A stretch of 64,000 nucleotides of DNA, from positions 20,010 through 84,009 of IMG/VR virus record IMGVR_UViG_2698537050_000003; one strand, 5' to 3'. The position numbers and the translations under genes are program-made. This DNA is from a virus (lineage: Duplodnaviria; Caudoviricetes). Each line of letters opens with the position of its first letter. Position 1 is the stretch's first letter. The notes below the pieces were generated by a model. It was given only the letters and a program-made list of their open reading frames with translations. It was not told where the DNA came from and ran no database searches. This document shows positions 31,336-34,602 of this stretch, piece after piece.

Positions 31336-33315
31336 TCAAGAAGTTGTGCTTTCGCCACTGTTGCTCTTTGCCCCAGCTTCGGTGCTTCCTTCTTTCTGGG
31401 CGAGAAAATTCAGCGTTCCTTGCCGGAGGGTAGAAAACTTTCCGACGAACAGGTTGAGGTCGATGTTCTGCCACGGCATGGCTGTCGCGAGAATGATTTG
31501 GTGTTCGACGGGGGCTGTCGCGGAAATCTCAATGACTTGCCTCTGAAAGTTATGGCTGCGCTCCTGCTCCATTCCCTTGTCCTCCGTAATATCGATCATG
31601 AGGAAGCGCGGGTGGCGGAACATCGGATCATTAAGAGCCGCGTTCAAGAAACCCATAAGGAAGGCCGTCTTTAAGACCACGCGAGAGCTGGCCGAGAAAT
31701 AGGTGTGATCGTCTACCGTGATGGAGTTCTTGGCGAAAGAGAATTCGACGCGTTTGGGGTCGCCGAAAGAATCTTGGCGCCTCAAGTCTCCGCGGAGTAT
31801 CTTGATTATGTTTTTCGCAATACTTGCCTTTGCGGTCCGCAGGCGATCGGTCTGGCTGAGCTGCAGTGCGCTGATGCGAGCCCCAAGCGCCTGAATTTCT
31901 TCATCCAGCTTTGCCTTCTTTTCGGATAGGTCACCAATCTTGTTAGCCAGTCTGACCTGTCTTTCGATGTCTTCAATGGACTTGTCTGTGTAACCAAGCT
32001 TGCGCTGGAGCGCGCGTATCTCTTCGCGGGCCTTCGATGTAGGTATGGCGCTTAGGTCTGCAAGCTCCTTTGATTTCAGTCGCCAGGTGCTCTGTAGCGA
32101 GCTTAGCTGAGCTTGATGAAGCTTGAGACGTTCTGCCCTGATGTCCTGTAAACGCTCGGATTGTTTAATTTGGATCGAAAGCTCGTTGATGAGTCCTACG
32201 ACTCGGTCGCGCGCGCGCTCCGAATCGAGCGGCGTCTTGCAAAGGTGACACGCCGCGACTTCGTCACTCTGCTCAAGGATCTCGGCGTAGCACGCAGGGC
32301 AGGTACCAAAATGGATCGCACGAACAACTTTGGCAGCAAGGTTCGCATCTCTCAGGGCTTCGAGGCGAGCTTGCAGCGTGTTGATGAAAGCGGTGGAGTC
32401 CGAGATATCGAACTCTATGGCATCCACCTCAGACTGCTTGTCCCGAATGTTTCCTTGAAGCTTTTGGACCTCCTGGTAGAGGTCCTTCTGCGCCTGAAGC
32501 GTGATCCGGTCTGATGATCGATTGGCATAGAATGCCTCCTCAGCGACGGATAGTTGAGAAGTTAGGATATCCCGTTCCTCAATCAAGCTCTTGCTTCGCT
32601 GCTCGATCCAGTTGAGGTCCATACTTCCGTCATCGCCTCCGACGACGCGAAATATACTGCGAAGTTCGGCTGTCGCCTCGGTCAAGTCCCGCTCTTTAGT
32701 TTTCTTCAGCTGTTGAAGCTCGTAAATTTGGGTGTCGAAGGCTCCGCACAGAAGATTTCCGACTGCCTCGCGCAAATTTTCTGGATCATACCCTTCAAAT
32801 CGAAACAGGCTATCGGTTGGCGAAAGCTGATCGGCGTACAAGAGCCGCAAGACCTGATGAATGGTAAGGTTCGATGTTCCTTCGACCGCGACATCCGGCA
32901 TGTCGAGGAGGCGGAAAATCGCTTGGGAAAAGCTCTCTAGGTTCTTCTGGCGGGCGTAGGGGTATCGGTTCCACGCTTCGATCGGTGCTGCCACAGCCTG
33001 CGAATAGCTACCGCCGAATATCTCCATCGAGGACTGAGATGAGGCATCAATCTTGCGGCGAAGCACCGCCGGGTTTCCATTGAACTCGGCCTCTACCCAA
33101 ACATGATCGCAAAGCAATGCATGTTCGCTCCAGTCGGTGCGACTAAGGTCTCCGCCAAGGCCATAGAAGATAAAATTCAAAATAGTGGATTTGCCGGAGG
33201 AGTTATCGCCTCGGATGATATTGACGCCGGTATGAAATACCTCGTCATATGCAATCGCAGCACCGCGCTTTACGACCAGCCTCTTGATGATAAGACAAGG
33301 ATCAAACCGAGTCAT
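31336..33315 (-). CDS. SMC-like ABC ATPase of an ABC-three-component/Lamassu-type system (LmuB-like)
   Basis: Walker A GDNSSGKST, YADQ Q-loop, coiled coils, CPAC..CHLC hook, FSASS signature, Walker B FLMIDITED. Confidence 0.88.
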   Translation of the reverse strand: MTRFDPCLIIKRLVVKRGAAIAYDEVFHTGVNIIRGDNSSGKSTILNFIFYGLGGDLSRTDWSEHALLCDHVWVEAEFNGNPAVLRRKIDASSQSSMEIFGGSYSQAVAAPIEAWNRYPYARQKNLESFSQAIFRLLDMPDVAVEGTSNLTIHQVLRLLYADQLSPTDSLFRFEGYDPENLREAVGNLLCGAFDTQIYELQQLKKTKERDLTEATAELRSIFRVVGGDDGSMDLNWIEQRSKSLIEERDILTSQLSVAEEAFYANRSSDRITLQAQKDLYQEVQKLQGNIRDKQSEVDAIEFDISDSTAFINTLQARLEALRDANLAAKVVRAIHFGTCPACYAEILEQSDEVAACHLCKTPLDSERARDRVVGLINELSIQIKQSERLQDIRAERLKLHQAQLSSLQSTWRLKSKELADLSAIPTSKAREEIRALQRKLGYTDKSIEDIERQVRLANKIGDLSEKKAKLDEEIQALGARISALQLSQTDRLRTAKASIAKNIIKILRGDLRRQDSFGDPKRVEFSFAKNSITVDDHTYFSASSRVVLKTAFLMGFLNAALNDPMFRHPRFLMIDITEDKGMEQERSHNFQRQVIEISATAPVEHQIILATAMPWQNIDLNLFVGKFSTLRQGTLNFLAQKEGSTEAGAKSNSGESTTS

Positions 33316-33823
33316 ATCTATACTCCAGAAGTCCTGTGCGATCCTTCAATCCATCGCGGCCGCCGAGGGTATATCGGGCCTTGATCTGGCAAAGTATGTT
33401 CATAATGTCGGCCATGCGCGCATTCAGTGTGCTGCAGCGCGCAGCTAATAAAGTCGGCAGCTCGAGCGCGGTAAATGCTACCTCGTCCGTTTCCCAGGCC
33501 TCAGCGGATAGATGGCCGCTTTGGATGAGGCTGGCTGCAGCGGCACGCTGAAACAGTTCCATTCTTGCAAAAATCGAATTGTCATCAGGCATTGCGCCGT
33601 AGGGCGCCCTATCTCCATAAGAGCGACTGATCTTCCGCCAACCCGTATCTTCAGAATGAAGCCTGATCGCCTGAAGGCGAAAGGGAAACAGCAGATAGAA
33701 GTCAAGGATGCGCAGCATGTCGAAGGGCATTCTTTTGTGAAATTGGCACGCAACGTTCAGCCGAATGAATCTGAATGCAGCGTGGTAGGCATCGAATGCC
33801 TCGTTGTAGGTGAGCTGGGTCAT
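33302..33823 (-). CDS. ABC-three-component middle component (LmuC-like)
   Basis: AFDAYHAAFRF...LRILDFYLLFP...GLKDRTGLLEYRYD; overlaps both neighbours. Confidence 0.8.
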   Translation of the reverse strand: MTQLTYNEAFDAYHAAFRFIRLNVACQFHKRMPFDMLRILDFYLLFPFRLQAIRLHSEDTGWRKISRSYGDRAPYGAMPDDNSIFARMELFQRAAAASLIQSGHLSAEAWETDEVAFTALELPTLLAARCSTLNARMADIMNILCQIKARYTLGGRDGLKDRTGLLEYRYDSV

Positions 33824-34407
33824 GGCTGGACCGCGCTGTGGTGCCATCTAATGAAGCATTGTTCGGCGAGCCAGTAGATCATACCCTGGACAAGGTTGTG
33901 GTTTACCGACATGAGTTCACTGCCGCACTCTTCAACGATTGGATTTGCGATTCTCTCGATCACAAGTGCGTTGATCTCCTCTGGAGTCTTCCGTGGAATC
34001 TGGCCGTAGATGACATGCGTGAACTCGGTCTCGGCCTTCGCTAGGATGTGCACGAAGATCTGCTGAGCTGATGAGTATAGAGACCAACGCTGCAATAGCT
34101 TGGCGAACATCTCCTTTTTTTCGATGGCATCATCGTAATATTGCGATCTTCCGCTGGCTTCCAACTTTGCCTGCAGACCTGCGACGCCATCTGGGGCGCG
34201 TCGGATGTGATAGCGAGCAAGCTCATCGATGATCGTTTGCGTCTGTTCATTGCAGTCGTACTGCTCCTTGAGACGCTGGAGCAGCCTCTCAATCATGCCC
34301 TTTTTGGTTTCGACGATTATCTTTACTTTGTCGCGAGCAACTATATCGCCATGAGCGTGAGCACCCTGCTGGCTGGAGATCGTGCTGTGGCCGGTGGCGA
34401 TGTTCAT
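33820..34407 (-). CDS. ABC-three-component CTD protein (LmuA-like) with no enzymatic effector domain and an N-terminal GDIVxRDK motif
   Basis: GLQAKLEASGR..AIEKKEMFAKLL..SAQQIFVHIL...GMIYWLAEQCFIRW; only ~30 aa precede the helical domain. Confidence 0.8.
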   Translation of the reverse strand: MNIATGHSTISSQQGAHAHGDIVARDKVKIIVETKKGMIERLLQRLKEQYDCNEQTQTIIDELARYHIRRAPDGVAGLQAKLEASGRSQYYDDAIEKKEMFAKLLQRWSLYSSAQQIFVHILAKAETEFTHVIYGQIPRKTPEEINALVIERIANPIVEECGSELMSVNHNLVQGMIYWLAEQCFIRWHHSAVQP

Positions 34408-34431
34408 GCGTGTCGTCGTACCAGCACCAAG

Positions 34432-34602
34432 CTAGTGCTTGTCTCGCCCGACAATGTCTCCTCCAGCACGCGCACGCGATTGATCAGTCGCTGTCCCTTG
34501 CCGGTCCGCACGAACATTTTTTGTAAGCTGAAACGTCAACAGCGCTCCGCCCACTGCACCGGTCAGCAAGCCGCCCAAGAAATTCCACAGGTCAAAACTC
34601 AT
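34432..34602 (-). CDS. 56-aa single-TM micro-protein with C-terminal GDIVGRDK motif
   Basis: GGGGGA RBS before ATG 34602; MSFDLWNFLGGLLTGAVGGALLTFQLTKNVRADRQGTATDQSRARAGGDIVGRDKH; first gene of the operon. Confidence 0.75.
   Translation of the reverse strand: MSFDLWNFLGGLLTGAVGGALLTFQLTKNVRADRQGTATDQSRARAGGDIVGRDKH

Follow-up and report, generated by a model that had tools for sequence, protein, structure and literature searches.

A Lamassu-type operon with a headless LmuA-type adaptor and a co-evolving tagged membrane micro-protein: possible prion-like signalling from an SMC-type DNA sensor

A stretch of 64,000 nucleotides of the virus record IMGVR_UViG_2698537050_000003 (Caudoviricetes; positions 20,010 to 84,009 of the record, hereafter the window, with positions counted from its first letter) carries at 31336-34602, on the minus strand, four abutting or overlapping genes that by sequence form a Lamassu-type operon (short type II, ABC-3C) of the CTD9/MC5 subtype. 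In the order of transcription they encode a micro-protein with a predicted membrane segment, an LmuA-type adaptor, a middle component and an SMC-type ATPase. The adaptor appears from its sequence to have no enzyme head, and the killing module has probably been split off as a separate peptide, the micro-protein. A short tag at the C-terminus of the micro-protein recurs at the N-terminus of the adaptor, and comparison of homologous loci indicates that the two tags co-evolve. We consider it likely, with some reservation, that the tags couple the peptide, as effector, to the adaptor. More tentatively, with a probability of about 0.35, we propose that this coupling is amyloid- or prion-like in nature: an SMC-type DNA sensor would signal by prion-like templating, in which a tetramer of the headless LmuA nucleates a cross-beta fold of the tag that spreads to the tails of the single-helix peptides and leads to a membrane pore.

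The ABC-3C, CTD9 and MC5 classes were reportedly defined by Krishnan and colleagues in 2020 in Nucleic Acids Research. All four genes of the operon and the features within them are on the minus strand. The first open reading frame (ORF), here called the micro-ORF, is a candidate effector gene that runs in the ORF list from an ATG at 34602 to 34432 and encodes 56 residues, followed by a stop; an alternative TTG start at 34626 would give a micro-protein of 64 residues. A Shine-Dalgarno-like GGGGGA (34609..34614) is seen directly in the sequence 6 nt upstream of the ATG, and similar G-rich stretches stand before the micro-ORF ATG in many homologous loci, of which no count was made. The stop of the micro-ORF is separated by 24 nt from the start of the adaptor gene (34407 to 33820, 195 residues), whose product combines an N-terminal motif, a helical linker and a CTD9 domain at residues 77-188 (33844..34179; Pfam CTD9, E 1.8e-34), the counterpart of the C-terminal oligomerisation and docking domain of LmuA. 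The adaptor gene overlaps by 28 nt the gene for an LmuC-type middle component (33847 to 33302, 181 residues), which covers the whole Pfam MC5 profile (positions 1-167 of 167, E 9.8e-53), and this gene in turn overlaps by 14 nt the one for an LmuB-type SMC/Rad50-like ABC ATPase (33315 to 31336, 659 residues; PADLOC LmuB PDLC03862, E 4.8e-47, residues 6-628). The Walker A motif NSSGKST, two CxxC motifs (CPAC and CHLC), a signature-like FSASS and D..EDKG of the ATPase are each conserved in at least 90% of 25 aligned sequences. No family was found for the micro-protein in Pfam, PADLOC or NCBIfam; sequence searches of the PDB with the adaptor profile, the ATPase and MC5 returned nothing meaningful, and a scan for promoters and terminators gave counts not above those in shuffled sequences.

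Ahead of its C-terminal domain (CTD) the adaptor has only 73 residues, in the place where LmuA normally has its effector, and these residues match no family in Pfam, PADLOC or NCBIfam. A fused N-terminal effector domain on the LmuA-type protein, a trait of type II Lamassu, is thereby absent from the adaptor. Homologues of the adaptor number 272 at E<=0.001, the 120 listed being 158-209 residues long; no longer, fused forms were present among 898 candidates, which is weak evidence. In an AF2 model built from an alignment of 69 sequences (pLDDT 80.8, pTM 0.71; a version from 31 sequences was poor, with pLDDT 56) residues 1-36 are without secondary structure, with mean pLDDT of 47-65 in blocks of ten residues, and the remainder is helical. 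Foldseek alone gave no match to this model at E<=0.001, though LmuA chains made up six of its top ten rows. With VIA-align, adaptor residues 74-195 were superimposed onto the CTDs of eight Vibrio and Salmonella LmuA entries (9uxl, 9uxh, 9hqx, 9uxi, 9ny5, 9nxx, 9ny1 and 9hr5; Z 9.5-10.2, root-mean-square deviation 3.3-3.8 A over 114-119 residues), the next entry having a Z of 6.5. The aligned part of the solved LmuA proteins begins near residue 257-273, after the Cap4 nuclease. A Z of about 10 on a helical fold is not proof alone, and we accept the adaptor as LmuA-type because this superposition, the Pfam CTD9 match and the LmuC and LmuB neighbours come together. An earlier note, made from the letters of the window, had proposed a four-gene minus-strand operon of transmembrane micro-protein, CTD protein, middle component and SMC ATPase, with an effector-less LmuA that carries a motif in the usual place of the effector; the Pfam CTD9, Pfam MC5 and PADLOC LmuB matches confirm the former proposal, and the CTD9 match, the superposition on LmuA and the 73 preceding residues agree with the latter.

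The sequence of the micro-protein is MSFDLWNFLGGLLTGAVGGALLTFQLTKNVRADRQGTATDQSRARAGGDIVGRDKH, and the adaptor starts with MNIATGHSTISSQQGAHAHGDIVARDKV. The micro-protein ends in QSRARAGGDIVGRDKH, of which the 15-mer lies at 34438-34482, and the corresponding residues 13-27 of the adaptor (34327-34371) read QQGAHAHGDIVARDK. With one further residue taken in for each protein, the C-terminal motif of the micro-protein is DQSRARAGGDIVGRDK (34438..34485) and the N-terminal motif of the adaptor is SQQGAHAHGDIVARDK (residues 12-27, 34327..34374); in 31 adaptor sequences Q13 is invariant, and A18, G24 and D26 are each conserved in at least 90%. The two 15-mers are identical at 10 of 15 residues, the codon being the same in 2 of these 10 and different in 8. 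The tag region of the adaptor has no predicted structure in the AF2 models. In a six-frame translation of the 11.7-Mb genome the core pattern G[DN][IVM][IV][GA][GR][DN]K does not occur outside these two sites, and thus the pairing of the tags is beyond chance.

The pairing is conserved far beyond the window. We compared 58 homologous loci, taken with one genome per species from Alpha- and Gammaproteobacteria including Pseudomonas, Lysobacter and Dokdonella. The order CTD9-MC5-ABC is kept in 56 of them, and in 52 there lies directly upstream an ORF of 50-70 residues whose product has a hydrophobic segment rich in glycine and, at its C-terminus, the motif ..DQSxAxAGGDIVGRDK... Overall, a micro-ORF with a matching tag is present in 54 of the 58 loci; three (L041, L055 and L058) are not assessable, being fragmentary or situated at the edge of a contig, and one is without. 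The count of 54 takes in two loci that stand outside the statistics on 52 pairs given below, namely L037, where the micro-ORF has an in-frame stop after the helix, and L038, where it lies upstream of a disrupted adaptor gene. Among relatives on viral contigs the tag pair is visible in three of six loci. The conserved unit consists of the four genes only, with no other recurring candidate effector.

Several of these loci appear to be damaged. In L038 (2600-4400) the micro-ORF and the adaptor tag are intact, but the adaptor frame continues through some 340 unrelated residues and only then reaches the CTD; this looks like an insertion, possibly of a mobile element. In-frame stops or frameshifts are found in metagenome-assembled genomes in the micro-ORF of L037 (3782-3950) and in the adaptor gene of L010 (3183-3290) and L025 (4001-4300); these are either decaying copies or assembly errors.

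Co-variation of the tags was measured on windows of 16 residues per side. The windows were extracted by their score against one common consensus, and since both sides were scored in this way the extraction is not biased towards the partner. One locus (L053), whose adaptor-side tag is not placeable, was left out of all motif statistics, and in another (L050) the adaptor tag was realigned manually at the invariant Q. Mean identity of the two tags is 10.21 of 16 residues within loci versus 9.22 across loci, and in 20,000 re-pairings the observed total was never reached. For each of 1,326 locus pairs a quartet contrast was formed (the two within-locus identities minus the two cross-locus ones), whose expectation is zero under independent evolution on any tree; 830 pairs give a positive value, 237 a negative one and 259 zero. 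When disjoint pairs were drawn at random, the median was 16 positive versus 5 negative contrasts (one-sided sign test, 0.013). In addition, residues common to both tags of a locus and differing from both family consensuses were counted 38 times, compared with 12.2 +/- 3.3 expected; the highest count in 5,000 shuffles was 30. In some loci whole blocks have changed in parallel: AGRDNAGGNI in the micro-protein and ARDNAAGNI in the adaptor of L050, SNVGRDQIGG and SNVGQNQIGG, respectively, in L052, and tags that both end in AGNK in L013. Without L050 the count of shared derived residues is 32 versus 11.1 expected; without all three loci it is 23 versus 9.2, and one of 20,000 re-pairings reaches the observed identity. 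Parallel block changes were also found in two loci that had been held out, L061 (AGRDNIG in both proteins) and L063 (GDQIVGDKY in the micro-protein and GDQVIGGKY in the adaptor).

Gene conversion was considered as the cause of the tag likeness and rejected, since codon sharing is no higher within loci than across them: identical residues have the same codon in 201 of 529 cases (0.380) within loci and in a fraction of 0.388 across loci. Of the codons at shared derived positions, 11 agree between the two tags and 25 differ, and the longest identical DNA run between the two tags has a median of 6 bases, reaching 12-16 in five loci. Thus selection on the peptides, rather than recent copying of DNA, explains their likeness. 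Another possible explanation is read-through of the micro-ORF stop codon, yielding a fused product with a transmembrane segment, two consecutive tags and the CTD. Within the window the TAG of the micro-ORF and the ATG of the adaptor are indeed in frame, eight codons apart (34408-34434, minus strand), and the metagenomic ORF P0279 (174 residues) has both tags in a single frame. However, the tags lie in a common frame at only 11 of 51 loci, where chance alone would give 17. Since the arrangement is not conserved, we reject read-through fusion as a conserved feature, and as an explanation of the paired tags we hold it to be very improbable.

These comparisons bear on most of what the earlier note had claimed about the tags. 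Its motif coordinates, the 10 identical residues of 15 and the 8 differing codons of these 10 were all reproduced, and its reading of the codons as selection on the peptide rather than recent DNA duplication is in agreement with the same-codon fractions of 0.380 and 0.388. It had suggested looking in homologues for an upstream micro-ORF with a co-varying motif, whose absence would have spoken against it; both are present in 54 of 58 loci, and the motifs co-vary (10.21 versus 9.22 identical residues, 38 versus 12.2 shared derived ones). Its interpretation as a whole, which ended in an amyloid fold templated onto the membrane peptide, receives partial support: the Lamassu/ABC-3C operon, the effector-less LmuA-type adaptor, the conserved and selected micro-ORF and the co-varying motifs stand.

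The pattern of substitutions indicates that the micro-ORF is a real gene under purifying selection. Twelve copies of 56 codons gave a median dN/dS (ratio of nonsynonymous to synonymous substitution rates) of 0.08 over 39 usable pairs of 66, and the C-terminal motif is the most constrained part of the ORF (0.06, compared with 0.12 for the helix and 0.22 for the linker). The helix is a glycine-rich hydrophobic segment at about residues 5-27 (34522..34590), with GGLLTGAVGG at residues 10-19, and is putatively a single transmembrane helix, as judged by Kyte-Doolittle hydropathy and by the pattern of charges in the family. The maximum over 19 residues is 1.54 (residues 8-26), and the median over 41 family members is 1.58. 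The count of K and R is 0.07 before the hydrophobic segment versus 2.7 in the 12 residues after it, and from this concentration of positive charge after the segment an N-out, C-in topology is predicted; if the segment inserts, this implies that the tag of the micro-protein would be in the cytoplasm, on the side of the adaptor.

A profile of 41 micro-proteins retrieved 263 clusters at E<=0.001, 118 of them at E<=1e-10, from 1.84 billion representative proteins. Nearly all are 50-100 residues long, and in most the match reaches the C-terminus or nearly so; where the source databases call the protein at all, it is 'hypothetical'. Long matches were examined as possible new forms of the effector and rejected: P0308, P0292, P0262, P0191 and P0222 seem to be ORFs that were called too long, with the peptide at the C-terminal end, and P0235, in which the peptide comes first and a low-complexity tail follows, was not accepted as a new effector domain. 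Some micro-proteins have further partial copies of the tag, for example GRDK...GRDQ or GDKIGGDKVGGNK (P0288; L053, 3621-3818; L026, 3750-3941; L027, 207-365), and these recall the effector-side pseudo-repeats of HET-s and of the BASS1/6 pairs (10.1101/2020.01.06.895854).

A scheme for the action of the operon can be drawn from what has been established for Cap4-type Lamassu. There, according to PMC12663957, 10.1101/2025.03.14.643221 and 10.1101/2025.06.23.660979, LmuA is monomeric, with its CTD held by LmuB2-LmuC; DNA ends cause its release, and the released LmuA tetramerises through the CTD, which activates the head. The last source adds that the CTD mechanism may be general. The adaptor described here would be reduced to a disordered tag of 16-20 residues, a helical linker and a C-terminal domain that docks on LmuB/LmuC, and, the head being a disordered tag, oligomerisation would therefore simply bring tags together. 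By analogy with Cap4-type LmuA, LmuB and LmuC would sense phage DNA ends, upon which the adaptor would be released and oligomerise via its CTD. The oligomer would gather several N-terminal tags, and the clustered tags would form a cooperative homotypic assembly that recruits the tails of the membrane peptides, possibly with an amyloid-like beta structure as in BASS and Bab/Agp signalling. Finally, the clustered glycine-zipper helices would permeabilise or depolarise the membrane, and the infection would be aborted.

The proposal that the assembly is prion-like follows from the gene layout. A matched motif at the C-terminus of one protein and the N-terminus of the other, encoded by adjacent collinear genes, is the criterion that defines bacterial amyloid signalling (10.1101/2020.01.06.895854). 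Just this arrangement, with the motif at the effector C-terminus and the receptor N-terminus, is found here and in 54 of the 58 loci, and the likeness of the motifs is greater within than between pairs, as in amyloid-signalling systems. Matched-motif signalling acts in phage defence with a non-NLR receptor (10.1101/2024.11.07.622273). We place tag-mediated coupling of the peptide to the adaptor first among the readings, with amyloid-like templating after it, because the layout equals that of amyloid signalling and because, as Bab/Agp illustrates, such a layout works in phage defence with a non-NLR sensor. The composition of the tags is mixed in this regard. BASS motifs are rich in Q, N, G, V and I, poor in K, P and L, and about 25 residues long (10.1101/2020.01.06.895854); the G (19%), Q (8%), V plus I (12%), L (0.4%) and P (0.3%) of the tags fit this description, whereas the amounts of K (7.7%), D (16%) and R (8.5%) and the length of the core, 16 residues, depart from it.

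A number of points weigh against prion-like templating or against parts of the scheme as a whole. As read from the sequences, the tag is not clearly amyloid-like: its core of 16 residues is shorter than the BASS motifs of about 25 (10.1101/2020.01.06.895854), and D, R and K together make up about 32% of it, K being scarce in BASS motifs. The two copies have identical charges at identical positions, and because of this in-register stacking would pile like charges upon each other. Tags of one pair are more alike than tags of different pairs by only about one residue of 16, and contact between the tags is itself a proposal drawn from co-variation and layout. GGDIVGRDK is nearly constant across two proteobacterial classes, which is not usual where two partners constrain only each other; a conserved third partner would account for it as well. 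The hydropathy of 1.54 is borderline for a transmembrane helix, and oligomerisation of a CTD9-type adaptor would be an extrapolation from CTD7-type LmuA. Lastly, the most divergent locus (L056), in which CTD9-MC5-ABC is otherwise complete, has neither micro-ORF nor tag (3500-4500); it may have another output or be a decaying copy.

Some of these points are better accommodated if the tags bind each other in a defined, non-amyloid way, through a small stoichiometric beta-sheet or hairpin or a simple homotypic contact like that of EAD or Death-type adaptors, so that the adaptor oligomer only recruits and clusters the peptide and nothing propagates itself. The genomic evidence for co-evolution fits this explanation equally well and is silent on polymer formation, and the shortness and charge of the tag and the strong conservation of GGDIVGRDK are more in keeping with a defined interface than with a generic cross-beta core. 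However, a single disordered tag of 16 residues is a very small interface for a stable 1:1 contact, and the additional partial copies of the tag in some micro-proteins (P0288, L026, L027 and L053) resemble the pseudo-repeats of HET-s and BASS1/6 (10.1101/2020.01.06.895854). On balance we regard defined binding as unlikely, if worth serious attention. Less probable still, in our opinion, is that both tags bind one third site, such as a pocket of LmuB/LmuC or a host membrane or quality-control factor, so that the micro-protein is an anchor or a competitive regulator rather than the killer and the output lies elsewhere. Such a partner would impose a near-invariant tag core over a wide phylogenetic distance, and two ligands of one co-evolving pocket would co-vary too; yet only four genes recur, with no other conserved candidate effector, and each of the lineage-specific block changes shared by both tags (L050, L052, L061 and L063) would demand a matching change in the partner.

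The operon resembles the short type II Lamassu or DdmABC systems (LmuA-LmuC-LmuB) of the Cap4 type from Vibrio cholerae and Salmonella enterica in its LmuB with Walker A and CxxC hooks, its small middle component and the LmuA-like CTD, as well as in the overlapping or abutting genes of a single operon within a defence island. It belongs to the CTD9/MC5 subtype, in contrast to the V. cholerae Lamassu, which is CTD7 and MC3 according to 10.1101/2025.06.23.660979. Unlike Cap4-type Lamassu, its adaptor is without a nuclease, Sir2, protease or other head, and it has a fourth conserved gene, for a membrane micro-protein that bears the N-terminal tag of the adaptor. One clade of Lamassu (Clade O of Haudiquet et al.) has "seemingly lost the effector domain" (PMC12663957). 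The main text of that paper contains neither 'membrane' nor 'transmembrane', hence no partner peptide for the effector-less clade, to which the CTD9 family may correspond.

Among amyloid-signalling systems the likeness is to Bab/Agp (BASS11) of E. coli ECOR25 (Ibarlosa et al., 10.1101/2024.11.07.622273), with adjacent collinear genes, an N-terminal hydrophobic helix and a C-terminal motif that is repeated at the N-terminus of a non-NLR sensor, and with proposed membrane damage and abortive infection. Bab differs in having a folded Bell-like helical domain (109 residues), whereas the micro-protein consists of one helix and a tail (56 residues); the motif sequence is another one, and amyloid formation has been demonstrated for Bab/Agp, whereas for the system described here it is a proposal. 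The NLR/Bell pairs BASS1-10 (Dyrka et al., 10.1101/2020.01.06.895854) and the fungal NWD2/HET-S pair likewise have a motif at the effector C-terminus and the receptor N-terminus, and the NLR/Bell pairs share with our loci closely spaced collinear genes, a similarity greater within than between pairs and pseudo-repeats on some effector copies. The receptors of NLR/Bell and NWD2/HET-S are STAND NTPases, whereas the sensor in our case is an ABC/SMC complex, so that no NLR/STAND receptor is present; moreover, the effector, for which Pfam has no family, is without a Bell or HeLo domain. The BASS1-10 systems are known mainly from multicellular Actinobacteria and Cyanobacteria, in contrast to the unicellular Proteobacteria here. 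As Bab/Agp shows, an NLR receptor is not obligatory (10.1101/2024.11.07.622273).

Full-text literature searches found no paper that connects Lamassu with amyloid signalling or with a membrane peptide, though Krishnan et al. 2020 may contain a statement on CTD9 partners. Lamassu, ABC and SMC are not mentioned in Ibarlosa et al. (10.1101/2024.11.07.622273), PMC13506858 or PMC12261475, and the word 'transmembrane' in the Millman preprint refers to another system, not to Lamassu.

The surroundings of the operon suggest, by their gene content, a defence island on an integrated element, since it lies between a type I restriction-modification set and an AIPR/AbiU-like gene, with an integrase further on. 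The restriction-modification set (24362-30131, plus strand) is complete and adjoins the Lamassu operon, comprising HsdR (24362-27121; ResIII, EcoEI_R_C), HsdS (27118-28644; Methylase_S) and HsdM (28641-30131; N6_Mtase; PADLOC MTase_I, E 2.3e-193). The AIPR/AbiU-like gene (37499-39265, plus strand, 588 residues; Pfam AIPR, E 5e-33; PADLOC AbiU, E 2e-35) is the second abortive-infection-type gene of the island, and a phage-type integrase of 473 residues (phage integrase family, E 4.8e-08) is encoded at 42818-44239 on the minus strand. Of three flanking ORFs on the plus strand, two have no Pfam or PADLOC family (34831-35946, 371 residues; 35956-36411, 151 residues), and the same holds for the third (30296-30829, 177 residues), which has a weak MltR-like NCBIfam match (E 0.0018), far below the cut-off. 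The defence-island context would fit a role of the operon in protection against phages or plasmids.

About 15% of prokaryotic genomes carry Lamassu (PMC12663957). The outputs known so far are enzymes fused to LmuA, and the effector-less clade has been reported without an explanation. The co-evolving tagged micro-gene offers a testable answer, namely that the effector is a separate membrane peptide joined by a matched tag; it also illustrates that annotation of defence systems overlooks functionally essential micro-ORFs. Should the coupling prove to be amyloid-like, no smaller amyloid-controlled cell-death effector than the micro-protein would be known, the operon would be the first amyloid arm of Lamassu, and the clade reported as effector-less would be accounted for. 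Amyloid signalling would then take in SMC complexes besides NLR- and TPR-type sensors, and ordinary Proteobacteria besides multicellular bacteria, and the pair of about 56 and 30 residues would provide a very small model of templated activation.

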